The notes under the pieces: generated by a model | What the model saw: the letters and a program-made list of their open reading frames with translations, nothing else | Told to the model about the DNA's origin: nothing | Databases searched by the model: none | Assembly (NCBI GenBank): GCA_000004985.1 | Contig: GG738886.1 | Length of the DNA: 64,000 nucleotides | Direction: 5' to 3' (one strand) | Source of the DNA: Naegleria gruberi | Taxonomy: Eukaryota | Shown: positions 8,206 through 53,261 of the stretch, piece by piece | Layout of the letters: every line of letters starts with the position of its first letter | Numbering within the stretch: position 1 is the stretch's first letter | Position numbers and translations under genes: made by a program

Positions 8206-9210
8206 TTATTGGATGTTCAAACCAGTTGCCAAAATTGTTTGTTGTCTCAAACTCACAACAACTCGAAGCAATTTAGTTGCCAATTTCGAAGGTTGCTTTC
8301 CACTTGCTTTCTTAGTTTCCTTTACAAGAATTAACAAATCGACTGGAAGAGCAGCAAAAGGAATCACTCCCTTAATCACCAAACTAGCCAACGACAAGGA
8401 AGCACAATAATCATTGGTCATGAGTCCTGAATTCTTGAAATCCTTCTTTTGATTACCTGTTAAAGATTGAACAAAATTGAAAACATTTACAACACAATTA
8501 TTTCCAATGCTAATCATGCAAGAATCCATTTCTGGATATTTGGATCTTATCACATAGATGTGGGAAATTATTTCATTGACCATTTGTGTGTCCTTTGCTA
8601 ACAATTCTTGAACTTGTTTGGCAGTATTCTTGGCATGTTTCCATTCTTTGAAACTGGCCACTACTGCTTCTGTTGTTCCTGATCCAATAACTAGTAATCC
8701 AGTTCCTGTAGCCACTAGAGAACCTCCAAATGTGAGTGGACTTCCCAATAATCCTCCAACTTGGAATTATTTTCATCAAATTCGATTGAGTATGTTGTAA
8801 AACTTACGAATAAGTGCTGCCCCAACAAGATTGGTAGCCGTTCCGTTTGCTTTCTTCTTTGCAGCTTCTTGTTGTTGATAATCTAATGCATGAATCATTT
8901 GTTCTAGTACTGAGATTAATCCCAATCTTTCTTGAATCCATTCTTGAGTTTTTCTTTCAACATTTGAAAGTTGTTCACTCAATAGACTATTGGTTTGATC
9001 TGGTAAGTCATATTTCACAAAAGATTGGTTGTTTGGAGTGAAAGATGGCAATGGCTCCTTTTCATATGGATTAATAACTTGCTCCCTCAACGAGTTAAAT
9101 GATGGATAGCAAACATTACCAGATAAGAGATGTGAACTCTCATTGATTAATGACGAAAGTTCTGGTGCAGGGGTTGAATCTGCATTAGTTTCAGAGTATG
9201 GATAATACAT
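8206..9210 (-). CDS. ApoL-like (apolipoprotein-L family-like) membrane-hairpin protein A; exons 9210..8808 and 8759..8206, 48-nt intron 8760..8807 (GTAAGT..CCAAG)
   Basis: Splicing restores [71 protein letters not shown]. This is collinear with the paralogue at 11765..13090 and resembles the ApoL hydrophobic hairpin plus flanking amphipathic helices (recalled ApoL1: GTTIANVVSGSL...APFTEGGSLVLL...DYGKKWW). The later ALPVDLLILVKETKKASGKQPSKLATKL resembles ApoL1 VSFFLVLDVVYLVYESKHLHEGAKSETAEEL. Confidence 0.6.
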
Positions 9211-11764: not shown

Positions 11765-13090
11765 TTAAGGTAAGAAAGTACCAGTTGCTTTTGTTGTTTG
11801 TGCCTTGATTGATTCCAAGATTGGTGTTAATTTGGCAGCCAATTTAGAAGGTTCCTTTCCATTTGCCTTTTTAGATTCTTCAACCAAAATAACCATATCG
11901 ACAGGAATGGAGATGATTGGTACCATACCTTTAATCATTAAACTGGTCAAACTCATAATACCTGTAGCACCATTTGTCAATCCACCACGACTATCCAATC
12001 CTTGGTGTCTATGACCAATAAGGGCATCAACAAATTGTACAACTCCAATAGTGTTTGAGCCAACAGAAATGGTACGAGTATCAATGTATGGATCAGTAAC
12101 TCTGTACTCGTAAATCTTTTTAATCATATCATTGACATATTGAGTATCCTTTGCCAAGAGTTCTTGAATTGCCTTTGCAGATTTCTTGGCATGTTTCCAT
12201 TCGACAACTGAGGCAACAACACTTGTGGTTGTACCAGCTCCAACACATCCAAGACCAGCTCCTGTAGCCAAAAGCGAACCTCCAAGTGTAAAAGGAGCTG
12301 CTACGATACCTCCCACAATCAATGAAGCACCAACAATGTTTGTGGCAGTACCACCAACTTTGGCCTTTGCTGTTTTCTTTTGTTTCTTATCCAATGCACA
12401 GATCATATCTTCAAGCATTTTAATGATTTCCATACGTTTCTTGAGCCATTCTCTGGCAGATTCTTCAACAGCAACCAATCTCATTGCTTGTATCATGTTG
12501 TTATTAATTGGTGGAGGAACAACAGTGGTTGTTTGTTGCACTACAGAAACAGGTGTCATTGGTGAGACAGTCTTTTCAACAGTTGTGGTTGTTTGTTGTA
12601 CAAATTGACCAGTTGGAGTCATTGGTTGGCCGAATTGAGATTGCATCATTTGAGGTTGTTGTTCCATGTATTGAGGATTCATACTTGGTTGTTGTGGATA
12701 GCCATGTTGCATCATTTGAGGTTGACCATATTGTGGAGGTTGTTGGTACATTCCTTGCTGTTGTGGATAACCTTGTTGGTATTGTTGATATTGTGGTTGT
12801 TGCATACCTGGTTGTTGAGGTTGTTGAGGTTGTTGTTGGTATTGTTGTGGTTGCATACCTTGTTGTTGTGGATAGCCTTGTTGTGATTGCATCATTTGAG
12901 GTTGACCATACTGGGATTGTTGCATACCTTGTTGTTGTGGATACATTCCTTGTTGAGGTTGTTGTGGATAACCTTGTTGAGGAGGGTATTGTTGATATTG
13001 TGGTTGTTGGACTCCAGGTTGACCATATTGTGGAGGTTGTTGCATACCTGGTTGAGGAGTTTGTGGAGAGTATTGTTGTGGTTGGTGCAT
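11765..13090 (-). CDS. ApoL-like protein B with prion-like Q/P-rich N-terminal extension, 441 aa, single exon
   Basis: ATG at 13090 in acaaaacaaaATG context. N-terminal about 165 aa are Q/P/Y/G repeats ([13 protein letters not shown]...). This is followed by [74 protein letters not shown] and [27 protein letters not shown], paralogous to 8206..9210 and ApoL-like. Confidence 0.65.
12600..13085. repeat. Coding low-complexity CAA/CCA(TTG/TGG)-rich repeat encoding the Q/P-rich domain of ApoL-like B
   Basis: Degenerate tandem repeats of ttgttg/tggttg on the plus strand. They generate spurious antisense ORFs (12508..13143 etc.). Confidence 0.6.
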
Positions 13091-13564
13091 TTTGTTTTGT
13101 GTTGAAAAATTATATGACTCAAGTCTGTTATTTAGCCTGTTGATTCGTATGAATTCTTTGGTCCGTTGTAACATTCGGAATGTCATTGTCCAATAAAAAT
13201 ACAATGAGAAAGTGACAGAAACAAGTTGCAAAATACAATTGTGGCAATTCAAATATGATTTGTGTGTTAATTGCCAAAAAGTCGAATTATTGTCTTACGA
13301 AAGGAAACATATGCATGTTACTTGGTTGATTTGATCAAGAAAATTGGCAATTCACATCCAAATGTGATTTGATAACTTGTTTGTGCATTCTAAAAGTATT
13401 CTGTTGTATCAACCAAGTTGCTGTTGTAAAGTCTAACTACAGTCAGAGTTGGTTTTAATTGAAGTTTTCCCATAATCCACGTACAGATTTCTTTTTAATT
13501 GCATATGGCACTTCCAAAGCTCCTCTCAATACTTTCAGAATATCAATTCCCATACTAACAAGTT

Positions 13565-15763: not shown

Positions 15764-16423
15764 TTTATTAGAATGTTGAAGTAAATGTATGTAATGGAAC
15801 GTACCTAAAGCATCGTGATATTGAATGTTTTTTTTCAAAATTACTTTTTAATTTTTCTTTTATTTTTCAAATTTTAAAGTTTAACGGTAAATATGGGAGG
15901 TGCTGAGATTATTTTTGTTGGTAAAACCAAACAACGTTGCAATTCTCTAAAACCGATTCAATCATCATCTTGCTATACAATCACAAAGAACTCAATTCAA
16001 GGTTTAATTCATCATTAATTAAATTGAAATACCAAATGCAAGTTTTGATAGGACTTCCATTCAATGATTTACTGTTTCGACTTGCTATAGTAATCCTATA
16101 TCCCATTAAGGAATTTGGACCCCTCGTTTATCTCTCTTAATCCCATTCGGAAAGCAATCACCAAAACAACCTGAGAAACTAAGCTTTTGATCCTTAAGGA
16201 AAGCCTCAATTTCAAAAAAATTGGTGTAAGAAGAGACAGGGAGAGAATGCGATTCTTTTTGAAAAATCCAAATACTGGATATTATGATAAGGGGGCATCT
16301 ATATGTTTGTCCTTATCGGCCTTATTAGCAAGGTTGTTATCCTTATCATCATTATCTTTATTTTCAACATCAGGATTAATATCCTTAAAAAGTTGTGGTG
16401 ATGAGGAATTTTCTTCTATTAAG

Positions 16424-19400
16424 ATGCTATCATCATCACCGTCATCATTAACAAGTTTAAATAATTCTAATGGGATAAGAACAAGATCAAAGTATCATTC
16501 TTCATCATCCCTTGTACTTTTATTCATCATTATTTCAATGATACTAGTTTCATGTTTCATGTGTGAACCAATTCAGGCCATCTCTTGTAGTGGAATAGAT
16601 TCCAACGACCTCACTGCTTGCTCTGGGATGGGGACTTGTATTCAGGATGAAACATGCCAATGCCTTAACGGATATTCAGGCGCTAATTGTGAGTATGTGG
16701 AGTGTTTTGGAGTTACAAATGAACCTGGTAATGAGGTTTGCTCTCGTCACGGGCAGTGTTCATCACCAGACAATTGTCAATGCGATTCTGGGTATTATGG
16801 CTCTACATGTTCCATCACAACTTGTTTTGAGAAGTGGAGTAACTTGTCGAATAGCAACAACATTTGCTCTGGGCATGGTACTTGTTCATCATTGGACGTT
16901 TGTGAATGTAATGCTGGATACTTTGGTAGCGAATGTGAAAAGGATCTTTTCGCTGGGTACAAACTAATTAGTATTAGCCCAGTAGTGATAGCAAAAAATT
17001 CACCTGACAATGTTGAATTGAAAGCAAGTATTGCCCTTCCTTCAATGGTTCTATCCTCTGCCTACTCACACGATGGTTCACAACCTTTACCATTTGTTGT
17101 TTCCAACTCTACAACTTCTATTGTTATTACAGATACGGTAAATGATGCTTTTGGTCAATTGTTAGTTCAGGAAGCAGATAGAAAAGCAGGTGAACTTTAC
17201 AATCTTCCATGTGATTTTAACATTTCCAATCCCGACCAAGAACTCAATAGTTTGACCATCATTAGAAATGGTGGAGTCTATTGTTTTCCAAATGGTGTAA
17301 CTATAAGAGGACACACATTTATTATTGTCGGTACAGAAACAGTCCTTTTCAAATCTCCTTTTGTATATTATTATGGAGCTTCCTTTTACTATCTGGAATG
17401 TGCCTCCTATAGGAACGTTTTCTGGTTAACCTATGACCAAGGAGATAATGGAAACTTCTTTTCTGGAGATATTCATGGAACTGTTATTGGAATTTCTCCT
17501 TATCATGGAATTCAACTTTACGATAACTTGGTGGGGGCTGTATGGTACACTGGTGGAACAGATATGATTCTATTCGATGTGAATATTTTACCACCAATAA
17601 CCTTCAATTCAAATGAAAGTTTTAGTCGAGATGATTGCATGGAAACAAGTTGTTATGGAATTTCATTCCGATTGAATAATACTTGCTTTGGAAGAGGTCA
17701 TTGTGTGAAGAATGATACTTGTTTGTGCAATACGGATTCATACGGAAGTAATTGTTTAATTTCAATTTGTAATGGTGTCTACGGAAATGAAACCAATGTA
17801 TGTAGTGGTCATGGTGAATGCCAAAGTAAGGACAGTTGTGAGTGCGAAAGTGGTTATTATGGAAATTGGTGTGAATTGACCACATGTTTTGGAGTCCAGA
17901 ATGACCAGCCGAATACTTGTAATGGGCATGGATTGTGTTCCAAATTGGATACTTGTGAATGTGCTTCTGGTTTTGGATATGGTGGTTCAAGTTGTGAAAT
18001 TCCAATCTGTAATGGAACTATGGCTAATGAAAGTAGTGTTTGTCTATCAAGAGGTCATTGTGTCCAACCAAATATGTGTAGTTGCCAATCAAGTTATTCA
18101 GGGTCAAACTGTGAAATTGCTAATTGTTTTGGAATTATTTCAAATGACAGCTCAGTTTGTTCTGGTCATGGGTCTTGTAATTCTGTAGATACTTGCACTT
18201 GTTCCATTGAATACTACGGAGCCGATTGCTCACAATTTGATTGTTATGGCATTCAATCAGTGAATAGTTCTGTTTGTTATGGAAGAGGACAATGTATTAA
18301 TGTTAATACTTGTTCATGTTCACAAGGATACTATGGCAATGAATGTGAAATCTCCATGTGTGATGGTATTTTGGGCAATTCCTCCCAAGTTTGTTCTAGT
18401 TATGGACAATGCAAGGATACGGATGTGTGTGATTGCCAATTGGGCTATTTTGGTGTGTTTTGTAATGAAACAACATGTAATAGTATAGCAATGAATGACT
18501 CAACAGTATGTAATGGACAGGGAACTTGTTGGCCATTGGACACATGTGTTTGCTCCAATGGATATGATGGCTCTAATTGTCAAAATCCTATTTGCTTTGG
18601 AATTGTTTCCACTAATACCTCTGTTTGTGGAGGTCATGGAGTTTGTTCGCAACCAAATATTTGTCAATGCAACCAGGGATATTACGGATCCCAATGTGAA
18701 ATAGTCACCTGTTCTGGTATCATGTCAAATGGATCAACAGTGTGTTCAGGACAAGGGCAGTGTTCTGATATGGACATATGCCAATGCAACAACCATTACT
18801 ATGGATCTAATTGTGAAAAGTTTGATTGCTTTGGTGTATCCTCTCTCTTAAACACCTCATGCTCTGGTCATGGTACATGTCTTGATTACAATACTTGCCA
18901 ATGTTACTCTGATTATTATGGAAATAATTGTGATGTTACCAAATGTTATGGTATTTTCAGTAATTCATCCAATGTTTGTTCATCTAAGGGAAGTTGCCAT
19001 GTACGAGATACTTGTATCTGTTCGAATAATTACCACGGTTCTTATTGTAACATAACAAGTTGTAATGGAGTTTATTCTAATGATGCTTCAGTTTGTTCCG
19101 GTCATGGTTCATGTATTGGGTACGACACTTGTCAATGTTTGAGCGATTATTCTGGAAGTAATTGTCAAGGAGAAATAGTTGACCCATTTGCTGGATTTAG
19201 AATTATTTCAGATTCTTCAGTTTCAATTTCTATTGATTATTTCCTGACAGATTGGCAACCAGTTTTGCAATCCTATACTCGTTACTATGCCTCAAGTTTA
19301 CTTCTTAAAAGTATTTCCTATTTGGATTCAAATATTCAATATCTTCCACATTCGAGTGCAGTTATTCTAAACAGCACAAGTGCACAGGGCATCAATATTG

Positions 19401-22400
19401 TCAACAAGATGAAAACCATCAAGTCCCAGTTATTGGCTTCATTAACCTGCACTAAAACTTACACAAACACTAACTCTCCAAATACTTTTATAATCAAACA
19501 TGGAGGTGTAATTTGTTTCACAGGAGGAATGACATTCGGGCCAGAAAGAACTATTATCATTGTGGGAACAGAGCCTGTCATATTCAAACTCCCATCCTTG
19601 CAGTATAGTGCTCTTAATATTGTTTTTTTGGAATGTGCCTCATATAGAAACTTTTTCTGGATTTTGGATTCAAATAGTTTTATTAAGGGAGCAGATAAAA
19701 CAAAGAATTATCAACCACCAATTCATGGAACATTTATTCAACTCTCTGGAACTATTTCTTTGAGAGGTTACCTTGCAGGTAGTGTATGTGCTTCGAACAT
19801 CAATACTCTTCTCCACGAAGTCACATTTTATGATCCAACCACTTTTGACCCTTTCCAAAGTGTCACTTCACAATGTAATTACACCCTCTGTTACAACATT
19901 CTATCAAATAATCAATCAGTGTGTTCAGGTAAAGGTAATTGTTCTGATTACAACACTTGTGTTTGTAATACGGATAGTTATGGATCTGATTGTTCTTTAT
20001 TTAAGTGTAACGGAATTTTGAGTTCAAACTCAACTTTTGTTTGTAATGGAAGAGGTAAATGTGTAGGGCCAGATGTCTGTTCCTGTAATCCAGGTTATTA
20101 TGGAGATTTTTGTGAGCTGACCACATGTAATGGAATTGAAAATACCTCGCCTCTTGTTTGTAATGGAAGAGGTGCCTGTAATCATTTCAATAGCTGTTCC
20201 TGTAGCTCTACATTTGGGTATGGTGGATCAGATTGCGATATTCCAATTTGCTATCAAAAACTTGCAACCAATCGTTTAGTTTGTAGCTCAAGAGGTGATT
20301 GCTTGGGACCAAATGTTTGTAATTGTACCGAAACTTATCTTGGTGATAATTGTCAACTGACCACTTGTGCTGATATACTTTCAAACTCTTCTCTTGTTTG
20401 TTCAGGCTTTGGATCATGTGTTGGCTATAACAATTGCACCTGTCATACAGGTTTCTATGGAGAAACTTGTGCAGAATATGATTGTTTCGGAGTTAATAAG
20501 AATAATCCAAATGTTTGCTCTTCAAAAGGCGAATGTATTACTGTTAATAACTGCACATGTCAAGATGGCTTTTTGGGTAATAATTGTTCCTACACTACTT
20601 GCTTTGGAGTAAGAAGTGATTCGCCTACAGTTTGTAATTCGAAAGGTTCCTGTAGAGCCAAAGATGTTTGTGAATGTTGGAATGGATATTTCGGAAGTAA
20701 TTGTACTCTGACAAGTTGTGGAGGGATCTATTCAAATGATAGCTCTGTGTGTAATGGACATGGTTCTTGTTGGCCAGCGGAAACCTGCACTTGTTTATCT
20801 CAATATGGATATACAGGTCAATTGTGTGAAATTCCAATTTGTTATACCATAGCAGCTAGTGATCCTTTAACCTGTTCTTCTCATGGCTCCTGTGTTGGTG
20901 TCAATACATGTGAGTGCCAAGCAAATTATACTGGATCCAAGTGTCAAGTTACATCATGTCAAGGAATTCTATCAAACGGCTCACTTGTTTGTTCTGGGCA
21001 TGGTTCATGTATTGAACATGATAATTGTACATGCCTAGCTGGTTACTTTGATACCGCCTGTAATCAATTCACATGTAATGGAACCAACTCCCAAGACAGC
21101 TCAGTTTGCTCTGGAAAAGGAAGTTGCGATTCATATAATAATTGTTCTTGTCAAGCGGGCTATTATGGACCTAATTGTGAAAAGACAATGTGTAATAACA
21201 TTTTGAGTGATAATCCATCTGTGTGTACATCTCGTGGTAATTGTATTGCCCCAGAAGTTTGCAGTTGTAATGAGACTTATTTTGGTACTAATTGTGAGTT
21301 GACTACTTGCAATGGAACTGTTTCAAATAGCAGCTCGGTATGTTCAGGATCAGGAGTTTGTTGGCCATTCGATACCTGCACTTGTTACTCTGACTTGGTC
21401 AGAGAATTCGAAGGTCAATGGTGTGAAAAACGTTTGTGGGATCCTTTCGCTGGATATCGAATGGTATCTCACAATGGTTTAGTTTACCATTTTGATGATA
21501 ACAACAATTTCTACACTCCTGATATTCATACCAATACTAGATATTATCGTTCAAGTATGATTTTAGATATACTTACAAAGATAACACCTACACTCAATTA
21601 CACATCTGATAATGGAGCTCACATTGATAGTGTTAATACTCCCAAAGCATCAGCCTTGGCTGCACTTATGAAAAAGAAAGGTAATTCCATGTGGACACTT
21701 CCATGTACTAAAACAGTTAACAATTCAAGTGATTTGCCATGGATTAGTAAGAGTGAAATTATGATTCGTCACGGAGGTGTTTTCTGTTTCAATATTGAAG
21801 CTTCTTTTCACAACAATATAACCATTATCATAGTTGGAGCTGAACCTGTTGTTATGAAAGTTCCTTCAATTCAATACTCTGCAGTCAACTTTGTATTTGC
21901 AGAATGTGCTTCTTATAGAAATTTGTTTTGGTTTATCACAAGTTATAATCCAAGTTTCATTCAAGGAGGAAATAGAGGGACTGGATATGAGCCTCCAATT
22001 TATGGAACTTTCTTCCCAACCTCAGGTGGTTCCTTCCAACTTGCTGGTCCTTTTGCAGGAAGTGTTTGGGTAACCGGTAATGCATGGACTGTTTTTATTG
22101 ATGTTACTGTTTATCCACCATTGTCAACTGATCCATATGAACCAACAGTTGGTCAATTTTGTAATTATACTCAATGTTTCAATGTTAAATCTAATTTGAA
22201 TACTACATGTTCCGGTAGAGGTCAGTGCATTGATTATAATACATGTGTTTGCAATGCCGATGCTTATGGAGTTGATTGTTCAATCTCCAAGTGTAATGGC
22301 ACATTTAGTAATGTATCAACTGTTTGTAATGGACATGGTTCATGTATCGCTAAAGATACTTGCCAATGTAATACAGGATACTATGGAGAATGGTGTCAAT

Positions 22401-25400
22401 ATACAACATGTGGAGGAATTGAAAGCACTTCACCATTGACTTGTAGAGAAAGAGGTACTTGTATTGCCTATAATCAATGTTCTTGTAATGTCACCAAAGG
22501 ATACAATGGTAATGACTGTGAAATTCCTTATTGTAACAACATTTTGGGAAACACTTCAACTGTTTGCAGTGCTCATGGTTCTTGTGAATTGCCAAACACG
22601 TGCAATTGTTCAGCAAACTATTTTGGAACATTTTGCCAATATACCACTTGTGCAGGCATTGAAACATATAATTCATCAGTTTGTATTGGTAGAGGTCAAT
22701 GTACACTTTACAATAATTGTACTTGTAACTCACCTTATTATGGATCCAATTGTGAACAATTCAAGTGTTTTGGAGTGAATAACAACTCTAGTACTGTTTG
22801 TTCTGGAAGAGGTATCTGTACAGATTATAACACCTGTGTTTGTAATGCTGGATATTTAGGATCGAATTGTGAAATTTCATCCTGTTTTGGAATTTTAAGT
22901 AATGTGTCCCTTGTTTGTAAAGCTCATGGAGTTTGTGTAGCTACGAATACTTGTGTCTGTGCTGCTAATTACATGTCCAGTGATTGTTCTGTGACTTCCT
23001 GTTCAGGAATCAATTCAACTTGGTCTTCAGTATGTCATGGAAGAGGTTCATGTTGGCCTTACAATACATGTAATTGTAATGCCAAATTGGGTTACACTGG
23101 AAATGATTGTAATGAGCCAATGTGTGACGGTCTTACAAACTCTGATCCTTATGTTTGTAGCGGAAGAGGAGGTACTTGTGTTTCTCCTAATCTATGTGTC
23201 TGTAACGATCCATCAAAATATTTTGGTAAATTGTGTGAATACACCTATTGTCGAGGTGTTCCAACCAATCTTACTGACACAGCACTCTTCTGTTCTGGAA
23301 ATGGTATTTGTACAGACTATAATTACTGTTATTGTTTTAGTGGATATACAGGAACTGAGTGTGAGTTGGATATGTTTGCAGGTTACAGATTCGTCACCAA
23401 TAAGAATGTTTATGTTTTGAAGAATCAGATTTATTACTTGCCTGCCAATATCGCCATAGGCCCAATGTTGAGTGCTGCTGGGCAGAAGACATACCTTCCT
23501 TACCAACAAGCAGTGAAAACCAATTTGAGAGTTGATGCTACATTGTTGAATGAGCTCCAAATGAGAGCTATGGGTTTAAGGTATAATTTCTTCCCTTGTG
23601 AACATTATATCAAGGACGCTTCAGTATTTGGAAAGAACATAGAATTGAGGGGAGGTGTGTACTGCATTCAGAATCCATGGACAATTGATGGACATAACTT
23701 TACCGTAATTGGTAAAAAACGAACCATTTTTACACTTCCACAGCTGATATATAAATCAGCAAAGTTCACCTACTATGAATGTGCATCTTATAGAGATGTA
23801 ATATTTTATGCCGGTGAAACTACTGGCTACAGCAATTTCACAGGACCTATCGATGCAACCATTTTTGTAAATTCACCAGGTGCAGCAGATTACTACGTGA
23901 ACGGTGATATTAATGGAGCAATCTATATATTTGGAAAACTTGGATCTAACGATGCTCCACCTACTGGTACTGTCTACACTACAGATATGAAATTTATTGC
24001 ACCATACACATTTGATCCAGCTGTTAGATACATTGAATCCAAGTGTAATTATTTCACATGTTTTGGAATTGGCTCTAATATCAATACTACTTGTTCTGGA
24101 AAAGGAAAATGCATAGGCATTGATACTTGCTCATGTATTTCTGGGGCGTATGGGCCTGATTGTTCTCTCAGAATGTGTAATGGAACTTTAGGAAACTTTT
24201 CCAATGTTTGCAGTGGTCATGGTTCATGTATTTCCACTGATATTTGTCAATGTAATGCAGGATTTTATGGGCAATGGTGCCAATACACAAAGTGTTATGG
24301 ATTAGAAAATACTTCTCCAACTGTTTGTTCAGGAAGAGGTTCTTGCTTGTCTGAAAATAATTGTATTTGTAATTCTACTTATGGATACGAAGGTTCACAA
24401 TGTGAAACTCCAATTTGTGGTGGACAATTGGGTATTTGTGCTAGTTCAAGCAGAGGAAATTGTACAGCTCCTGACACTTGCTCATGTTTGGATCATTATA
24501 GTGGTCAATTTTGCCAATGGACTACTTGTAATAGCGTACCTTCTAATTCATCAAGTGTTTGTTCTGGAAGAGGAATATGTGCTGCATATAATACTTGTCA
24601 ATGTAAAGCAGGATATATTGGATCGATCTGTGAAAAGGATGTCTTTGCTGGATACAAATTAATTAGTAACAAGGCAGTTCTTTTAGCAAAGAATTCAAGA
24701 GCTAGCTCTGTGCTGGCAGCAAGTATTGCCCTTCCTTCAATGACAATTAGACCACCAACATTTTTAAATCCAGATAAGGTCTATCCATATGTTGCAAGTG
24801 GTAAGTCTGTAATTACAAAGCCAACCGATTCCTACTATCAAACTTTAATGACCGAATTATCAAAGAAATTCGATGAGCTCATGTCCGCTCCTTGTGACTA
24901 TGTAATTTCAAAACCAGATACTGAAATGGGTCAGAAAATTCTCATTGAGCATGGTGGCGTCTATTGTTTCCAGAATGGTTGGAACATTAATGGTCAAAAG
25001 TTTACAATTGTTGGAACTGAGCCAGTTATTTTCAAAGCTCCATATATCAAGTATTCTGGAGCTAACTTTGTATATTTGAAGTGTGCTTCATATAGAAACG
25101 TGTTTTGGGTCACTCAATACTACAACTTGACTGGCAGAGTAAATTGGGTTAACAGTAATTCATTTTCTGGAACAGTTCATGGCACAATAGTTGCTAGATA
25201 TGGGTATGATTATTTAGTTTCCGATGATATACAAGGAGCTATTTGGTTTTATACTCAAGAAGATGGATATATCACTTTGAAAGATGCTAAACTTACAACA
25301 CCTCCAACATTTGATCCTTACATGCCATATGTTACTGGATCTTGTGATACTTATACTTGTTTTGGTATTGATCCAACTTCGAATATGAGTTGCTCAGGTA

Positions 25401-28400
25401 GAGGTGTCTGTAAAGATTACAATACATGTACATGTCAAGATGATTCCTATGGTATTGATTGTTCCATTTCTAAATGTTATGGAATTTTTGGAAATGTGTC
25501 AATTGTTTGTTCCTCTCATGGTAATTGTACATCAAAGGATACATGTACATGTAGTGAAGGATACTTTGGAGACTTGTGTCAATACACTTCATGTGCTGGC
25601 ATTCCAAATAACTCTACAAATGTCTGTAACCAGAGAGGTGTTTGTAATATTTACAATTCTTGCACTTGTAACACAACTTTGGGTTATGATGGATCGAATT
25701 GTCATGTTCCAATATGTAATCATCTAGTAGGAACATGTACAGATCTATTCAGAGGTAACTGTACTGCTCCTAATGCATGTTCATGTGAAAATCATTATTA
25801 TGGGCCTTGGTGTGAAAAGACAACTTGTGGTGGATTTGAGTCAACTAATACACAATCTGTTTGTAATGGAAGGGGTAATTGTACAGCTTATGAAAAGTGT
25901 ACCTGTTTACATGGATATGCAGGAGCATTTTGTGAAGAGTATAGTTGTTTTGGAGTTGTGAGAACTCTTCCGTCAACTTGCTCTGGAAGAGGAGCTTGTT
26001 CTTCAATTGACCAATGTGATTGTAGCGCAAATTATTATGGATCTAATTGTGAAATTAGCAAGTGTAATGGTAAATTTGGAAATGAGTCTACAGTGTGTAG
26101 TTCTAATGGTCAGTGTATTGAGACAAATATTTGTAATTGTTCAGAGCATTATTATGGAAATTGGTGCGAAAAGACGACTTGTTTTGGAGTTGCTTCCAAT
26201 GAGTCAAATGTTTGTTCACATAGAGGACAATGTAAAGCATTCAATACTTGCCAATGCAATCAAAATTACTTTGGAGATAATTGCGAGTTGACTACTTGTA
26301 ATAATCTTGCTTCAAACTCTGGTTTGGCTTGCAATTTGGTTGGCAATTGTACAGATTACAATACATGTGTTTGTCCTTATGGATATACTGGTTCATGGTG
26401 TGAACAGACTACTTGCTTTGGTGTAGCCACAAGTTCTCCAAGTGTTTGTAATGGACATGGTAATTGTACAACTATGGATATGTGTAGTTGTGATCCTAAA
26501 TATGGTTATGGTGGAAGTAATTGTAACATTACAACATGTGATGGAGAATTGTCTACCTCTTCTCAGGTCTGTAACTCACATGGTACATGTATTGGACCAA
26601 ATCAATGTCAATGTGCTCCACATTATATTGGTGACAATTGTCAAGTGACAACTTGTTTTGGAATTCTGTACAATGACTCTAGTGTTTGCTCAGGAAAGGG
26701 TTCTTGTGATGGATTCGATAACTGTACATGTGAACTTGGTTATTCTGGAGCAGAATGCGACCAGTACACATGCAGTGGAGTTTTCAATTCAAATCCCTTA
26801 GTTTGTTTCGGTAGAGGAAACTGTACTGAATATGATATCTGTGTTTGTGAAGCAAATGCCTTTGATTTTGATTGTTCTGGTGTTTCTTGTAATGGATTTA
26901 TCAATGCAGATCCAATGGCTTGTTCTTCACATGGTTCATGTACCCAAAATCAATAGTGTAATTGCTCTGAAAATTATCATGGTGAATGGTGTGAGCTCAC
27001 AACTTGTAATGGAATTGATTCGAATAGTACTGAAGCATGTTCTGGAAGAGGAAGATGTGTAGATTATAATAGTTGTGTCTGTTCGAATGGATACTATGGG
27101 GATGACTGTCAGGATTACAATTGTTATGGTATTTCACATTTTTCAAATTTGACATGTTCCGGATATGGTAATTGTTCCGATATCGACACATGTGAATGTT
27201 TTGAAGATTCTATTGGTTTAGATTGTTCCGTCAACGTTTGCAATGGTCTTCCTATGAATTCCTCATTAGTTTGTTCAGGACTAGGCAGTTGCACTCGACC
27301 AAATTATTGCAATTGTTCAGATAACTATTTTGGAAGTAATTGTGAATGGACCACATGTTATTCCATCGCATCATTCTCTCCATCCACATGTTCTGGAAGA
27401 GGAAATTGCTCTGATTTTGATAAGTGTATATGTAATTCTGATACATTTGGTTCCGATTGCTCTCTCTTCAAATGCAACCACACCCTTGGCAATGAAACTC
27501 AAGTTTGTAGTGGACGAGGTTCATGTATTGGCACTGATGAGTGCAATTGCACTGAGAATTATCACGGAGAGTTTTGTGAATTTACTGAATGTTTCTCTCA
27601 ACTTTCTAATGAAAGTTCAGTTTGCTCTGGAAAAGGAAAATGCATTGAGTTCAATAATTGTTCATGCCAAGATGGATATTTCGATCAAGATTGTTCTCAA
27701 TTCCAATGTAATGATACCTTCAGCAATGAAACCACAGTTTGCTCCTCAAGAGGTTTTTGCATTGATTCGAACAAGTGCAATTGCTCAGAAAATTACTTTG
27801 GACTGAATTGTGAATTGAGCATTTGCTTTACAATTCTTTCTAATGACAGCAGAGTTTGTTCTAGAAGAGGAATTTGTGTTGATTATCAAAACTGCTCATG
27901 TTATGATGGATTTTATGGTGAAAGTTGTGAGTTTGCTGTAAGTGCAGTGAACAATCAATCAAATTCCACTCAATTGAATAATCAAACTATTGATTCCAGT
28001 AATGTAACCATGAATAATAATTCATCGGTGGTTTTTAACAATACTGATAACAGTACAAATACTGATAATAGTAGTGTTGTGGTCACTAATCACACAATTT
28101 CAGAAGACAATACAACACGTTCTAATTCAAATGGAACTGTTTATAATAACAATAGTACAGACCTTTCTAATGAAACAATTTCAAATAATGGAACAGTTTC
28201 TGCTAACGCAAATGTTACTATCCCTGACAATTCTACTTCTTCCACTAATCAAACTGTTTCTCCAAGTACTGATTCATCAAATGGAACTGTTTCCAATAAT
28301 ACTGTAAATGCAACAGCTTCTGATAATACTACCACTGATAATTCCAACATTACAATTTCGGATAATACCACTTCACCTGGATCCAATAATCAAACTATTT

Positions 28401-31400
28401 CTCCAAGTGTTGATTCATCAAATGGAACGATTTCAAATAACACTAATCCTTCGGTAGTTTCGAACAGCTCAACTGTTTCAAACTCTTCTTTTACTAACGG
28501 AACAGTTTCCAACAGCACAGTCACTTCAAATAGTAGCACAATTACTTATAATACCACAATTTCATCAAACGAAACAATTTCGGTTAATGTAACAAGCAAC
28601 ACATCAAAAATTACAAATTCAACCTCAATCTTGAACGAAACTGTTCCTGTAATGCCTGAGCCTGATGTTGTGGTTGCTTTGCCGGTTGCAATTATAAAAC
28701 GAATGAGCTCGAACGTGTTCAGCTCATGCGATGATATTAGAGTGGATGGCTCGCAAAGTTTCTCACAAGATTCGACCTATCTTGACTATTATTGGAATTT
28801 ATTGGAAGCAAGCTCTTTGACTAGTTTACAAAGTTTGCCTAATAGTCCAATCATTGTCATTGACTCTACATTGAAGCCAGGACAATATGTTGTTTCACTA
28901 AAAGTTGGAAATGGAAGAAATAGTTCAGTGAACTATTCGAAACCTTTCACCAAGTCAGCAAATCCACTTCCAAAGATTTATATTGCTAATTCTTTGATTG
29001 AAAAGTATGGAAATCAATTCCCAGTAACCATCAAGAAAGTTATCACAGAATCAACTTGCCAAAAGGAAAAATCAGTAATTAGTTGGAGTCAATTAAGTGG
29101 ACCAACAGTTAAATACTCAATTGACAGTTTCAGTAATCTTGCTATTGCCTCATTGACTACCTATGGTTTCCATACTTACATCTTCCAAGTTTCAGCTCAT
29201 TACCCTTCAAATCCATTAGAAAGAGTTTCTGCCAATGTAACACTTGTTACAAAATCTCCTGAATTGCAACTTGAATTATTGACAACTGATGCAAATTCTA
29301 ATTACACAACTATTGTAATTGGATACACAGATCCAGAGAGTGCTTATAATACTCTTTCTGAGGAATGGAAATGGACTTGTTTGAATAATACGAATCCAAG
29401 TTTAATTTCCTTCTTGGAATTGATTTCTAAAAACAAGCAAACTGAAGTTAGATTTGATGGTTCATCACTATTTCGTCAAAACATACCTCGCTCTATTGAA
29501 CTATCTTTAAGAATTTCCAAGTCTGATAGAACAATCTCCAAGTCAATTATAGTTTACTTTGGATTGGTTCCACCTATTGTAAATATTATTTCAGTAGAAC
29601 CAAGCACTTTGTACGTTCTTCCTGGAGAACCTCTCAGTATTCAGACATTAGTCACCAAAGGAAATGTTAATGTTACATTGAATGGACAAGTTGTTGAAGT
29701 ATCCGATCAACAGCCAACCTTGGATGTTGACACTAAACTATTAGAACAAGGTTCTGAAAATACAATTACAATCACATCGACTGATCCAGTGACTGGAATG
29801 TCTAGCTCTTCAAGCTATACTTTCAAAGTTGCTACCTATCCGAAACCATGTGCTTGTTTCATTTCTCCTTTAAGTGGAATTGCATTAGAAAGCGATTTTG
29901 AATTCTATTGTACGAATTGTAAAAATTCAGAAAATAATATTGACTATCGATATGGATTTATAGATGACAGATCCGAAACAAGAATTCTATTATTCGATTC
30001 TGGTGAAATTTATGCTTCCAAGTTGCCATCTCCATTTTCTGGAAATACTGTCAAATGTTTCTTTGATATTGTCGATACAGAGACAGGTGCTTTTACAACA
30101 GTTTACAAAAATGTCACTATAGAAAAACCTCTCGTTACAAAAGTCGAACAAGTTCAAGGACTAGTCGAATCATGGACTATTGTGGGATCCAACTATTTCA
30201 GTAATGGAGATTTCAGTAAGAGTATTTATCAATGTGCTTCAACTTCAAGAACTGATTCAGTTTTATTGAGACAGATATTAGGAAATGAATATTTAGAAAG
30301 ATCAGAAAGTATTGAATGTGAGAATGGTGTTGATATTTCAGGAGTGTGTAAATGTCATGATGGATATATTGGTAAACATTGTGATAAGGCGATTAGTGAC
30401 TTTTCTAATATTCAAGGTACTAAATTGCAAGTACTCAGAGAAATGGTGACCATTGCCAATAGCACTGGTGAAATGAATAATCAATATTTGTCATTGCTGT
30501 CATTTGCCATTGATTCGATACTTGTCAATTATCAATATTTAGATACAAATACTATATCTGAATCAATGTATACTTTGAATATGTTTTTGGAATATTCCTT
30601 ATCTGATGAAAGTTTGAGATTACCAACCGGGGTTGATAAGTTATTAGAATCTAGTCAATATTCAACATTTAATTACATTACTGATAAGCAATACCTTACT
30701 GATCAAACGTCAAATGCCTTAAAATTATTGAAATCTCTCAAATTGTCATCTCAGTTACAAGCAAGATCTGTTTCCATGTCAAATGCCAAGAGAAACATTA
30801 AGGGATCATTCTTTAGTATAGTTTTGGGTAAGAGCTTGTTAGCTGATCATCAAAATAATATTCAAGATCCCCATTCATCTTCGTCCATAAGTATGGAGAA
30901 TGGTTTCTTTGCTTATACTGCAAGATCTAAAGTTTCATCTATCAAAAAGCCATATATTTACATCCTGTCTGTGACTGATGACATTTACTCATTGGGAACT
31001 AAACTCAAAGTTGTGGAAAAGAATAACAATGTTCAAAAGGTTTCAAATTTGGTTTCTCCAATAGTTTCTGTAGATTTTGTGGATGTTGCCACTACCATGA
31101 ATCCAACAAAAATAATTTATTCGATTCCAATTAATTTGAATGGATCAACATTTGAATTGAGAAGAGGAACTTTTGATTTATCAGTCAAGACACTGGACCA
31201 GTATTGTAAAAACTTTGATGAAGGTTCTATTAAAGTTCTTTCAGACTGTACCTTAATTTCATTGACTGCAACACATGCCAAATGTCAATGCTCCAAATTT
31301 ACAAATGTATTTGTTATTGAAACAACGACCATTTCAACTTATTCCTACACCTACTTGGCAGCTATTGGTTTCTCTCTTGTAGCTGTCTGTTCCATTGGAA

Positions 31401-31924
31401 CCTTGGTAATTCTCTCAGTTTGCGTATGGTGGAAATTCAAGAAACCTAAACTTTCCAAAAAGAGAAGTCTTGTCTTTACGGATGCCTCTGAAAATGAGAT
31501 TCAACTCAGAATTCAAGAAATTATTCTCGGAGACCATACATACAGTAATTCAGAAACTAACTCTGATGATTCATTGATTATTGATGTGATAGATGATTGT
31601 CCATCAGGAGGAAGCAGTGGAACAGGTTCAAATAATGGAAGAATGAGAAGTTATTCAATGCAAGAAAGACCAACCACAATGATGAGTTCATCCTCTCCAA
31701 GAGGTGGAGTTGGTGCCAATATACTTTCATCTTCACCAAGAGGAACAAGAAATCGTTCATCTTCAGTTGCTCCATTGATTATTCAGGAAAGCCATGAATT
31801 GGATTCGAATGCATCAAGTTCTGATGAATTATTAAAGAATCATTCAGAGGGAGGTGTTAAACGATCTGGAAGTGGTATTTGGGATTTGAGAGAAGATGGC
31901 TTTCTAGAACATGAAAAATTTTAA
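16424..31924 (+). CDS. Giant (about 5,170 aa if read through) type-I membrane protein with about 100 tenascin/laminin-type EGF repeats, a mucin-like stalk, a GPS-like motif and a single C-terminal TM. Single exon; interrupted by one in-frame TAG at 26954..26956 (ORF-track ORFs 16187..26956 and 27149..31924 share one frame).
   Basis: A putative signal peptide follows the ATG at 16424 (LVLLFIIISMILVSCFMC). The repeat is C-S-G-x-G-x-C-x(5)-C-x-C-x(3)-Y-x-G-x-x-C-E with NxS/T sequons throughout. A non-EGF module (FAGYKLIS...HGGVYCF...IVGTEPVIFK...ECASYRNVFW) recurs 5x at nt about 16943, 19190, 21440, 23380 and 24640. An N/S/T-rich stalk spans 27950..28650. TM is YLAAIGFSLVAVCSIGTLVILSVCVWW (about 31345..31430), then a Ser-rich tail. 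Confidence 0.7.
27950..28650 (+). repeat. Low-complexity Asn/Ser/Thr-rich segment (dense N-glycosylation sequons) encoding the mucin-like stalk of the giant protein
   Basis: NQSNSTQLNNQTIDSSNVTMNNNSSVVFNNTDNSTNTDNSS...; imperfect repeats (SNGTVSNNT... recurs). Confidence 0.5.
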
Positions 31925-42457: not shown

Positions 42458-42883
42458 AAGAATATTGGAATCGAATTGGATATTATGGCCAATAATGAAA
42501 AATAAGAGAATCATAAAATGATAAGAGAATTGAAATGAGAATTTTTTTGGAATATTCAATCTTCTCTTTAAATACAAAGATTCAACATCAAGAATTGTCA
42601 TTACTAAGATATTCATATAATACAATGAACACTCCCAATAAAGTATTCTGAATGAAAATCTACAAGGAATTTCAAATAGAAACCAATTGCTTCATAGGCT
42701 TGTAATGGACTCATTCACTCCGCCTTACTGAAAGTGGTTGTTGGATTCCAATTAGATTCTGTTTAAATGAGCTTAAAATACCTCACCAACAGCACAATCC
42801 AATTCAATTCAGCCTGAAAAAAACAAATTCAAAACGCGTTGTTTGCGCAAACCTCTGTACAAAATACAAAACACACTCGAGAT

Positions 42884-43912
42884 ATGATGGGAAAGAAATT
42901 ATTTATTGGTGGGATTATGATGATCATGATGAGCATGATGATCGTTGCTGTAGTGAGCGAGACCACAGCTATTGCTAGCTCAGCCATTGAAATTTACACC
43001 CAAATGGATAATGCTGAAAAATCCGCTGTTACTAGCACCACTGTTGCTGTCAATAATACTCAAACTGCCATTTCTCTTTATAATTATCAATATCTCACAG
43101 TCAATAGTCTTCCTGGTTATGCTTGGAATTACTATTATGTTGACTTGAATGCCAACTCTTATGTTTCCATTTCACATGCCAGTAGAAGTGGTGGTTCTAT
43201 GGAAATTTTGATGAATCACTATGATCGTCCAACTATTTACTCCTACAGCAAGAAGAATTATCTCTACACTTATCAATCTACTTTGACCAGTGACCCAAAG
43301 AGCTATTATAACAGACTTTACATTGCTGTCAGAAATACTAATTCTTATGCCAGTAATGGTTACACTTTGAGCGTTAGAATTTATACCAATACTGTCACTC
43401 CAACCCCTACACCAACCACCACCACTATTTATAGAACTAACTATGGTTTGACTCTTGGAATGGGTGTTCCTGCTTTGGTTATTACTCTCATTCTCTTCTT
43501 TGTTGTCCTTTCTCAAATTAAGAAGATTAAGCTCTTGACCTCAAGAATTGAACAACTCGAAAAGAAGTTGCAATACAACATGCAACCACTCTCTGAACAA
43601 GAAATGCCTGTCATGATGAATATTCCACTCATGTCTGCCAATACTTTACAACAAGATCATGAAGAAATTCAACAAGTTCCACAAACTCAACCAATTGTTC
43701 AACCTCCAACTATCAATGCTGTTCCAGAACAACAACCAACTACTCTTCCACATTTCTTCCCACAATTTGTTCAACAACAACAATTGCCACCTCAATTCAG
43801 AAATGCTCAACCTTATCCATTCATGTATCCACCACAAGTTGTTTTTGCTCAACAACCACAAGTTCAACCTGTTATTGCTCAACAACAAACTACTGGTCAA
43901 TCCAAACAATAA
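42884..43912 (+). CDS. Type-I membrane protein with an extracellular beta-sandwich (PPC/pre-peptidase-C-terminal-like) domain and a Q/P-rich cytoplasmic tail, about 342 aa
   Basis: ATG ATG at 42884. Signal peptide. YYYVDLNANSYVSISHASRSGGSMEILMNH...YTLSVRIY pattern. T/P linker, TM (LVITLILFFVVL), then QQ/PQ-rich tail. Confidence 0.55.
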   Translation: MMGKKLFIGGIMMIMMSMMIVAVVSETTAIASSAIEIYTQMDNAEKSAVTSTTVAVNNTQTAISLYNYQYLTVNSLPGYAWNYYYVDLNANSYVSISHASRSGGSMEILMNHYDRPTIYSYSKKNYLYTYQSTLTSDPKSYYNRLYIAVRNTNSYASNGYTLSVRIYTNTVTPTPTPTTTTIYRTNYGLTLGMGVPALVITLILFFVVLSQIKKIKLLTSRIEQLEKKLQYNMQPLSEQEMPVMMNIPLMSANTLQQDHEEIQQVPQTQPIVQPPTINAVPEQQPTTLPHFFPQFVQQQQLPPQFRNAQPYPFMYPPQVVFAQQPQVQPVIAQQQTTGQSKQ

Positions 43913-51455: not shown

Positions 51456-53261
51456 TCAATAAGAAGTATAGACAGAAATGTGTTCAGTTATGAAACATCC
51501 CTTCACAAACATTGCTGTTGACAATGGAATGTACAATCCGTCAAATTCCTTCTCCAATCTCTTTTTAATCCATGAATCGACTTGATTTCTAGAAACTGAA
51601 ATAGATGGTCGAATGGTGAAAGGTAATTTCCCCTTACATGAAGAAACTGTGCATGTATGTTTCTCCACAAGATATCCAATTGACAAAGCTGCCAATTCAA
51701 TTTCTTCTTCAGATTCCGAGTTTGAATATTGTGAAATTAGTGATTCCACATTATTATTTTGTTCAATGAGATTCCTTAATATTTCAGGAGAAACACCTTT
51801 GAATTTGTTTACCAAGTTTGGGTTTCGTTCAGCCAACTTGAGCATAAATTCTTCATCATTCAAGAATGGAGATAAATTAATGTTTGGTTCCTTCTCACAG
51901 GAAACATACTTTAAAATTAATTCCTTATCAGTTCCCAATCTTCGGCTCAAATACTTGAACATTTCAGGATACTGATCTAAATATTTCATGACAAATTCCT
52001 TGTCATCTTTCAATCTGTCAGAAGCATAACAAAACAGCTCTGGAACCTTAGATAATACAAATGACATAACCTCTTCATCATCTAAAAATTGCAATCTTGT
52101 TGAACTAATACATTCAGGATGATATTTCAAACATTTCAAAACAAATTCCTTATTTTCCCTAAGATATTTAGGTGCCAAATAGATTGCACTCTTAAATCTC
52201 GACAATAAATCCCAATCTTCTTCCCTACTATTTTCTAATGGATCCAATTCAATATACTCCAAATTTCCCTCCATATATTTGATCCATTTCACTTCCTTGT
52301 CAGTGAACATTAAATATTCAGGAATGAATTGAATTAGTCTTGCATCTTTCTTGATTAATTCACGTAAGAATTCCTCATCTGATTTAAGATGTTTTGGAAG
52401 GTATTTAAATAGCTCTGGATATCCATTCAAAATCAAATTGACTCTATCTTCTGCGGAATAGTCAATTAGCTCATTGTTTCCTAAAATTCTCTCAATCATT
52501 GAAACAGTTGCATATTGAAGGAGATTCTTATCTTGTGAAATGGCTTTCAACACAATTTCTTCATCATTTCTAAACTCAATATTTGCAAATTTCAAGGCAT
52601 TTGGATTACATTCAATTGCCAATAATGTCAATTCCCTGTCACCATTCATACACAAACTAATATTCTTGCTTAATATTTCAATAACTAGCTCTCTATCGAC
52701 TTCTTTCCAATTGACAAATTTGAGAATTTCTGGATTCAATTTTACGAAATAATTCACCAAATTTTCAGGAAAAATGTCTGAATTTTCTTTTAATTTCAGA
52801 TCTGCATTTCCATATTTGAAATTAAACGAAACTGGTTCATCTTTTGGGAATAATTTTGGGAAAATTTGATGATTTGCCTTGATTGCCTTCACAATAAAGT
52901 TTGGATCTTGTCTCATCTTGTCAGGAATGTCAATTTTAATGCCAAATAAATGTTCCCTCGCTATTAGAAAGTACAAAATAAAGTCTTGATCATTTAAAAT
53001 TGATAAATTTCGCAATAGATGGGGATATTTAACAAGAATGTGGCAGTCTCGATAATATTCTAATGGAATGTATCGTGGTTGATTCTTTAATATTTCGTCT
53101 CGTTTCGAACAATATTTTAGAAAGGATTTTCTTTGATTTTTGAATTTTGAGAAAAGAAGATTTGATTTGATATTAAAATCCAAATTGATCATCACACCAG
53201 ATTCATCGTGTGTGAGATTATCAATATTATTTTCTTGCATTTTTTTACAATTTAAAAGCAA
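51456..53261 (-). CDS. DUF4116-like tandem-repeat protein, 601 aa
   Basis: Repeated about 30-aa units of form D-x-E-F-V/I-L-K-A-I...L-K/Q-F/Y-A...L-K-x-D-K/E-E (FIVKAIKANHQIF, EIVLKAISQDKNLLQYA, EFVLKCLKYHPE, EFVMKYLDQYPEMFKYL, ELILKYVS). Confidence 0.5.
   Translation of the reverse strand: MLLNCKKMQENNIDNLTHDESGVMINLDFNIKSNLLFSKFKNQRKSFLKYCSKRDEILKNQPRYIPLEYYRDCHILVKYPHLLRNLSILNDQDFILYFLIAREHLFGIKIDIPDKMRQDPNFIVKAIKANHQIFPKLFPKDEPVSFNFKYGNADLKLKENSDIFPENLVNYFVKLNPEILKFVNWKEVDRELVIEILSKNISLCMNGDRELTLLAIECNPNALKFANIEFRNDEEIVLKAISQDKNLLQYATVSMIERILGNNELIDYSAEDRVNLILNGYPELFKYLPKHLKSDEEFLRELIKKDARLIQFIPEYLMFTDKEVKWIKYMEGNLEYIELDPLENSREEDWDLLSRFKSAIYLAPKYLRENKEFVLKCLKYHPECISSTRLQFLDDEEVMSFVLSKVPELFCYASDRLKDDKEFVMKYLDQYPEMFKYLSRRLGTDKELILKYVSCEKEPNINLSPFLNDEEFMLKLAERNPNLVNKFKGVSPEILRNLIEQNNNVESLISQYSNSESEEEIELAALSIGYLVEKHTCTVSSCKGKLPFTIRPSISVSRNQVDSWIKKRLEKEFDGLYIPLSTAMFVKGCFITEHISVYTSY

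Follow-up and report, generated by a model that had tools for sequence, protein, structure and literature searches.

Q/P-rich N-terminal tails on ApoL-like proteins of Naegleria are a family trait conserved in composition rather than in sequence

A stretch of 64,000 nucleotides from Naegleria gruberi (GenBank assembly GCA_000004985.1, contig GG738886.1; hereafter, at its full length, the window) carries two paralogous genes with an ApoL-like core, here called A and B, and in B this core is preceded by a long low-complexity tail rich in glutamine (Q) and proline (P). Comparison with homologues in other Naegleria indicates that Q/P-rich tails are the rule in this family across the genus, by composition and not by sequence, and that paralogue A is the exception. 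The product of gene B itself is probably an ApoL-like membrane protein that is made in the cytosol and anchored by its hairpin, with a disordered, low-complexity tail that works as a flexible arm. A first-pass annotation of the window had instead described a prion-like domain fused to the ApoL-like core in a single paralogue. The parts of gene B and the features overlapping it are as follows.

11765..13090, minus strand: gene B, a single-exon coding sequence (CDS) of 441 codons plus stop, encoding low-complexity tail, linker and ApoL-like core
12626..13090, minus strand: low-complexity tail, residues 1–155 (composition, repeat periods and spacings, internal duplication, AlphaFold2, FoldIndex)
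12509..12625, minus strand: Thr/Val/Pro-rich linker, residues 156–194 (translation; predicted local distance difference test, pLDDT, below 50)
12365..12508, minus strand: long helix before the hairpin, residues 195–242, ending in the Lys-rich KKQKKTAK (AlphaFold2)
12203..12358, minus strand: hydrophobic hairpin of 52 residues, uncharged and Gly-rich, residues 245–296 (sequence; the most conserved block of the family)
11768..12202, minus strand: C-terminal helical part of the core, residues 297–441, starting with the invariant EWKHAKK (alignment; AlphaFold2 helices)
12827..12835, minus strand: 9-bp length polymorphism, a Q-Q-P or PQQ unit (pairwise alignment with a metagenome contig, L001)
13025..13036, minus strand: PPQY, a PPxY-type motif, residues 19–22 (regular expression and translation)
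12728..12739, minus strand: PPQY, a PPxY-type motif, residues 118–121, within the second large repeat unit (regular expression and translation)
12508..13143, plus strand: spurious antisense open reading frame (ORF) of 211 residues, 65 of them Val, with a TTG start
12593..12886, plus strand: second spurious antisense ORF of 97 residues, 43 of them Leu, with a TTG start

The ORF of gene B starts with the ATG at 13090 on the minus strand and runs uninterrupted through 441 codons to 11765. Its low-complexity residues 1–155 confirm the placing of a repeat region at 12600–13090, and the length of about 165 residues proposed for it matches a Q/P-rich character that reaches approximately residue 166. 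Five residues make up 92% of residues 1–155 (Q 44.5%, P 18.1%, Y 10.3%, M 9.7% and G 9.7%), with a single charged residue and Asn at 0.6%, so that the initial description as Q/P/Y-rich is correct as far as it goes, but Met is as abundant as Tyr and Gly and Q/P/Y/M/G-rich is more accurate. The full-length AlphaFold2 model, which was poor (pLDDT 45) and served as a disorder indicator only, gives residues 1–194 a pLDDT of about 32 and no secondary structure, and the FoldIndex of the tail is −0.37. By these indicators, the tail looks like a flexible, intrinsically disordered, almost uncharged Q/P/Y/M/G segment.

The tail is built from imperfect peptide repeats (GYPQQ in four copies; QYGQP, PQQQGM and QPQMMQ in three copies each). 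At the DNA level, the periods given by Tandem Repeats Finder are 9, 15, 18, 21, 27 and 51 nucleotides (nt), and the start-to-start spacings within direct-repeat families are multiples of 3 in 20 of 20 cases. On a larger scale, two units of about 60 residues can be recognised, residues 17–82 aligning with residues 86–140 as an internal duplication. The repeat copies differ solely at synonymous sites and are near-identical as DNA. Gln is encoded by CAA 67 times and by CAG twice in the tail, and in a ratio of 7:0 in the rest of gene B; since the same bias prevails outside the tail, the CAA/CCA DNA repeat of the first reading, which in the form of imperfect CAA/CCA-type repeats does encode the tail, reflects ordinary codon bias and not a special DNA element. 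The alignments indicate that the tail of B has grown by internal duplication of about 60 residues plus small codon-repeat slippage.

Comparison of repeat length among strains, proposed as a check when the region was first annotated, revealed that the length indeed varies. A close strain was found in metagenome run ERR1078381 only, where contig L001, 97.9% identical to the window over 3.1 kb, encodes the same gene (protein P0001). Within the CDS, the two differ by 6 substitutions, comprising 5 synonymous changes and one conservative V>I, and within the repeat by a single in-frame 9-bp indel, the PQQ unit at 12827..12835 being removed in L001. Indels in the flanking non-coding DNA are mostly of 1, 2, 4, 5, 7 or 16 bp, with one of 3 bp. 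Two records of Naegleria fowleri likewise differ by one PQQ unit. Tail length thus evolves by in-frame slippage and is polymorphic in 9-bp, three-codon PQQ units.

The ApoL-like core, in frame with the tail as originally proposed, is supported by a match to the Pfam ApoL family (PF05461) at residues 221–324 (E-value 8.2e-10; 39 bits compared with a gathering score of 25.9), which covers only positions 66–172 of the 298 in the profile; paralogue A alone remains below Pfam significance. The hairpin at residues 245–296 lies inside this match and overlaps with a weak Pfam match to SseC; it also aligns, in weak profile matches, to the pore-forming toxins MakE and NheB. It is presumed to be the membrane-inserting element; in APOL1 and APOL3, insertion into membranes and the forming of pores are attributed to a hydrophobic helical hairpin (PMC7891394). 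The AlphaFold2 model of the core, based on a 62-sequence alignment, is a helical bundle (pLDDT 71, predicted template modelling score 0.66) in which confidence is high for the helices but not for the hairpin: the helix at residues 195–242 has a pLDDT of 80–96 (81–88 in the full-length model), as have the C-terminal helices 98–143 and 226–247 in core-model numbering (80–96). Both flanks of the hairpin are strongly basic and there is no signal peptide, and the tail is therefore likely, by the positive-inside rule, to face the cytosol. The Thr/Val-rich linker between tail and core is beta-prone and better conserved than the tail, its position being occupied by poly-Thr in the N. fowleri and Naegleria lovaniensis homologues (P0003–P0008) and more weakly so in an N. 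gruberi homologue (P0002).

High-scoring matches in a search with the core were all from Naegleria, with 67% identity for N. gruberi and approximately 50% for N. fowleri and N. lovaniensis (range 48–67%), and a precomputed PF05461 match is present in 8 of 8 Naegleria homologues. With the exception of A, the members of the family have N-termini of 116–198 residues with 16–37% Q, 12–23% P and 1–7% charged residues; in N. fowleri FDP41_005037 and FDP41_005038 and N. lovaniensis C9374_005332, Q accounts for 21–33%, P for 21–23%, Y for 8% and Met for up to 12%. The density of Q+N per 80 residues is 42 in B, 23–41 in the other members and 16 in A, with values of at least 30 in five other Naegleria members and of 28–29 in two more. 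FDP41_005037 and FDP41_005038 are single-exon genes in tandem and carry a tail on both copies, encoded by CAA/CCACAA repeats with periods of 3, 6, 9 and 21.

L002 7001..9727 (VFQX01000043.1): N. fowleri tandem locus, with proteins P0005, P0007 and P0008

P0007, the protein of another N. fowleri record, equals FDP41_005037 in its N-terminal half, apart from one additional PQQ, and the adjacent FDP41_005038 in its C-terminal half, either through unequal crossing-over between the tandem paralogues or through assembly collapse.

Paralogue A is a neighbour of gene B in the window.

9210..8808 + 8759..8206, minus strand: paralogue A, 318 residues in two exons; the spliced translation restores the hairpin GAALILGGLLGSPLTFGGSL
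8807..8760, minus strand: intron of paralogue A, 48 nt, GT..AG, phase 1, inside the hairpin-coding region (sequence reading)

No intron interrupts gene B or either of the two N. fowleri genes. A and B share 49% identity in the core, and the N-terminus of A is, as first noted, short and non-repetitive (77 residues, 4% Q, 16% charged). The earlier statement that only one paralogue bears the low-complexity domain is true within the window but not beyond it, given the five other Naegleria members with at least 30 Q+N per 80 residues and the two tandem N. fowleri tails. In a neighbour-joining tree of the cores, the grouping (A,(B, N. gruberi P0002)) receives bootstrap values of 83% and 93.5% and is placed within a clade of tail-bearing Naegleria proteins. 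Because A branches inside this clade, loss or replacement of the tail in A is more parsimonious than its gain in B, and the phylogeny suggests that A most likely lost its tail. With A as query, the sole match was its own strain variant (P0009), which provides no orthologue of A with which to date the loss. Several anchors (MHQ.., PGV, QPxYQxYPP and PPQY-MYPQ) are common to the tail of B and the shorter N-terminus of N. gruberi P0002, and the tail of B therefore arose by expansion from an older N-terminus that was shorter and rich in P, Q and Y.

The wider family was assessed with a profile search of the core, which returned 1030 cluster representatives at E ≤0.001; 146 of these were examined, none of them among the eight Naegleria sequences first retrieved and one of them being P0009. 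None of the 146 has a Q/P/Y tail (median N-terminal extension 14 residues), which points to an architecture specific to this lineage. Long N-terminal extensions among them include RING fingers (as in P0018), a caspase domain (P0074, from a metagenome) and a P/S/T-rich region (P0010, from Acrasis kona, another heterolobosean). These variants suggest that the core serves as an effector module in defence or cell death whose regulators at the N-terminus can be exchanged. When the tail alone (residues 1–166) was used as query, none of 8000 word-sharing candidates reached E ≤0.001 and even the near-identical P0001 was missed, low-complexity queries being uninformative here. The literature yielded nothing on ApoL-like proteins of Naegleria, and nothing usable on Naegleria in connection with prion-like proteins, on the locus tags of the homologues or on the evolution of APOL proteins.

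The tail of B is no mere chance feature, as a six-frame scan of the 64-kb window for segments with at least 15 Q per 60 residues recovered only one other. It belongs to an unrelated single-pass membrane protein with a Q/P-rich C-terminal tail, a hint that this genome has repeatedly equipped membrane proteins with cytosolic tails rich in Q and P. Other neighbours include two adjacent very long ORFs of 3589 and 1591 residues; the larger is visibly packed, by eye, with Cys-rich EGF-like repeats, and the smaller has teneurin-type EGF repeats and a REJ domain by Pfam. Read together, the two ORFs may form one giant polycystin-1-like surface protein. The MAD1-type and DUF4116-repeat genes are ordinary eukaryotic neighbours.

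42839..43912, plus strand: single-pass membrane protein with a Q/P-rich C-terminal tail (..QQVPQTQPIVQPP..QFVQQQQLPPQF..YPPQVVFAQQPQVQP..)
16187..31924, plus strand: two adjacent very long ORFs, 3589 and 1591 residues
46623..49661, plus strand: MAD1-type mitotic checkpoint protein (E-value 7e-56)
51456..53261, minus strand: DUF4116-repeat protein

Several other explanations of the tail have to be weighed, beginning with the proposal that the repeat is untranslated, either because translation begins downstream or because the repeat is spliced out as an intron. Several in-frame Met codons inside and after the repeat would permit this, and since three of the six frames are free of stops across 12600..13090, an open frame alone proves nothing for translation; the same stop-free frames give rise to the Val-rich and Leu-rich antisense ORFs at 12508..13143 and 12593..12886, rightly regarded from the outset as spurious by-products of the repeat. 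The tail frame is, however, continuous with the conserved core in a single ORF, all periodicities are multiples of three, the strain indel preserves the frame, and the gene models made independently for N. gruberi, N. fowleri and N. lovaniensis have equivalent N-termini starting with MHQ or MQQ, from which we infer that the tail is translated. In addition, the sole intron seen in the family here measures 48 nt compared with 465 nt for the repeat, and an untranslated repeat is extremely improbable. As to a prion, a protein is considered Q/N-rich by the Michelitsch–Weissman criterion when it has at least 30 Q+N in 80 residues, and the oligopeptide repeat of Sup35 is PQGGYQQYN. A true prion-like or amyloid switch, in which an aggregating tail serves as template for oligomerisation and sets off permeabilisation of the membrane by the core in the manner of HET-S, would be in keeping with a tail well above this criterion that is almost chargeless and disordered, with repeats resembling those of Sup35 and with the beta-prone T/V-rich linker directly after the tail. 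An amyloid-controlled pore former also has a precedent (PMC3531502, PMC4518210). Such a switch is nevertheless very unlikely, given 18% Pro with no Pro-free stretch longer than 13 residues, the scarcity of Asn, a longest poly-Q run of 3 and the lack of any conserved motif of about 21 residues. The maximum PAPA-type score of the tail, 0.019, is under the 0.05 cut-off (0.10 for the Sup35N control), as computed with a re-implementation that has its own set of propensity values and not with the official program. No NLR-like neighbour was recognised among the large window ORFs scanned, and neither NACHT nor NB-ARC domains were found by Pfam in 10 window ORFs of 151–1591 residues. A positive PLAAC call on the tail is expected from composition alone. 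The initial label of a prion-like, aggregation-prone domain therefore stands for composition (Q+N density, few charges, disorder) but not for the features that would nucleate amyloid, and to judge from its sequence the tail does not look like a classical amyloid-forming prion domain.

Purely neutral expansion, which would make the tail a slippage by-product in stop-poor CAA/CCA DNA, tolerated as a spacer without a function of its own, is a serious rival, possible though less than likely. It accommodates the PQQ-unit indels between strains in two species, the near-identity of the repeat copies as DNA (hence their youth), tails that are not alignable between species and a paralogue A without one, and a tendency throughout the genome is hinted at by the other Q/P-rich tail of the 64 kb, which sits on an unrelated membrane protein. 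It is harder to reconcile with the recurrence of the same unusual composition (Q/P/Y/M, 1–7% charged) at the same position in at least three species and several paralogues despite a core at about 50% identity, with Met at 9–12%, which CAA/CCA slippage alone does not explain, and with the absence of such a tail from the 146 representatives examined beyond the first eight Naegleria sequences. A more specific role would be that of a docking platform, with PPxY motifs binding WW-domain (NEDD4-type) ligases or YP-type motifs binding penta-EF-hand proteins (ALG-2), coupling the ApoL-like protein to ubiquitin/ESCRT (endosomal sorting complexes required for transport) sorting or to Ca2+-dependent membrane repair, as in annexin A7/A11, ALIX and PLSCR3. 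This is unlikely. There are two PPxY motifs (PPQY) in B and two in N. gruberi P0002, one relaxed YPx4YP at residue 35 and four GYP in B, the GYP count being well over that of shuffled sequences, together with a PxxPxK motif, LPPLPMK, kept in the N. fowleri and N. lovaniensis members and a composition resembling ALG-2-binding Pro-rich regions (PMC3397542, PMC5037681); yet the PPxY count in B is not above shuffles (P = 0.11), the N. fowleri and N. lovaniensis members have no PPxY, and neither of the strict ALG-2 motifs, type 1 (PxYPx4YP) or type 2 (PxPGF), has a match in B or any homologue, for which reason ALG-2 motif membership of the tail was rejected.

We favour the flexible arm. Because its composition is conserved and its motifs are not, the tail most likely acts through bulk properties. 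In such a ‘sticker and spacer’ arm, Tyr and Met would be the stickers and Gln, Pro and Gly the spacers. By promoting clustering of a weak and reversible kind, or the docking of partners, the arm would tune the location and density of the membrane-active core, with no self-templating amyloid involved. A stronger version, by analogy with known effectors, would make the tail and the beta-prone Thr/Val linker a regulated switch by which a pore-forming executioner module is clustered, in which reversible condensation, possibly sensitive to Met oxidation as in Pbp1, concentrates glycine-zipper hairpins on a target membrane and leads to its permeabilisation, as an independent heterolobosean counterpart of death and defence effectors gated by amyloid or oligomerisation, such as HET-S and MLKL. 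The fusion of ApoL-like cores to RING or caspase domains elsewhere fits a defence or cell-death role, but this stronger version is quite unlikely.

Several points weigh against the flexible arm. Tail sequence is not alignable between species, composition but no motif being conserved, and one family member, paralogue A, has no tail at all. The conserved composition could be the outcome of mutational bias, through slippage and an AT-rich genome that prefers CAA, rather than of selection. A function through clustering or docking is something we infer, with no motif kept across species. The coding, in-frame status of the tail, its start codon and its translation are likewise deduced from sequence, and the PAPA-type score is subject to the reservation made above. 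Finally, aromatic residues are evenly spaced in the tail of B to a significant degree (1/2000 shuffles), but as a sign of selected sticker patterning this spacing was rejected, being absent in the N. fowleri and N. lovaniensis homologues; in B, it is a trivial result of the tandem repeats.

As it stands, the main yield is a corrected first reading, in which the tail is a family trait and not a one-off fusion, and the importance is modest; gating of membrane permeabilisation by the tail, if true, would raise it. If the tail tunes clustering of an ApoL-like permeabilising core, B would offer a simple protist case of a low-complexity domain controlling a membrane-active effector and would add an unstudied branch, that of Heterolobosea (Naegleria, including the pathogen N. 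fowleri, and Acrasis), to a family whose biology bears on human innate immunity and kidney disease.

Among known systems, the core of B is closest to the ApoL family (PF05461; APOL1, APOL3), with which it shares a hydrophobic helical hairpin flanked by long helices, whereas it has no signal peptide and carries a low-complexity tail in place of the N-terminal part of human APOLs. The ClyA-family alpha-pore-forming toxins (MakE, NheB, NheA, PaxB and ClyA) are comparable to the core only, through the weak profile matches to MakE and NheB. The tail shares with the Sup35 N domain a Q-rich, Tyr/Gly-containing, nearly uncharged, disordered and repeat-based character but differs in having almost no Asn, evenly spread Pro, no Pro-free Q/N tract and a sub-threshold PAPA-type score; we take it to resemble the oligopeptide-repeat part of Sup35 without the nucleating tract. 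The combination of such a tail with a putative pore former had been called unusual, but precedents in kind exist in HET-S and in annexin A7/A11. HET-S of Podospora anserina (HeLo plus prion-forming domain) similarly joins a membrane-permeabilising helical domain to an unstructured region, self-associating in HET-S (PMC3531502, PMC4344463). Its prion domain is, however, C-terminal and consists of a 2 x 21-residue beta-solenoid motif common to the adjacent NLR (PMC4518210), whereas B has no conserved motif and no NLR neighbour among the ORFs scanned. Annexin A7/A11, like B, carry an uncharged G/Y/P/Q-rich disordered N-terminus on a membrane-binding core, with GYP-type repeats in common, and the low-complexity domain of annexin A11 phase-separates and tethers granules to lysosomes (PMC6890474). 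In comparison with annexin A7/A11, ALIX, PLSCR3 and Sec31A, B lacks defined ALG-2 motifs (PMC3397542, PMC4346919), has much higher Gln and Met, and shows no homology. The Met-rich low-complexity domain of Pbp1 (yeast ataxin-2), whose condensate is dissolved by Met oxidation (PMC8394241, review), is like the tail of B about 10% Met, Q/P-rich and disordered, a likeness that is compositional only. Rather than a categorically new system, gene B is thus a lineage-specific variant of known themes, one being the membrane-binding protein that bears a low-complexity tail and the other the ApoL-like core to which varying N-terminal parts are added.

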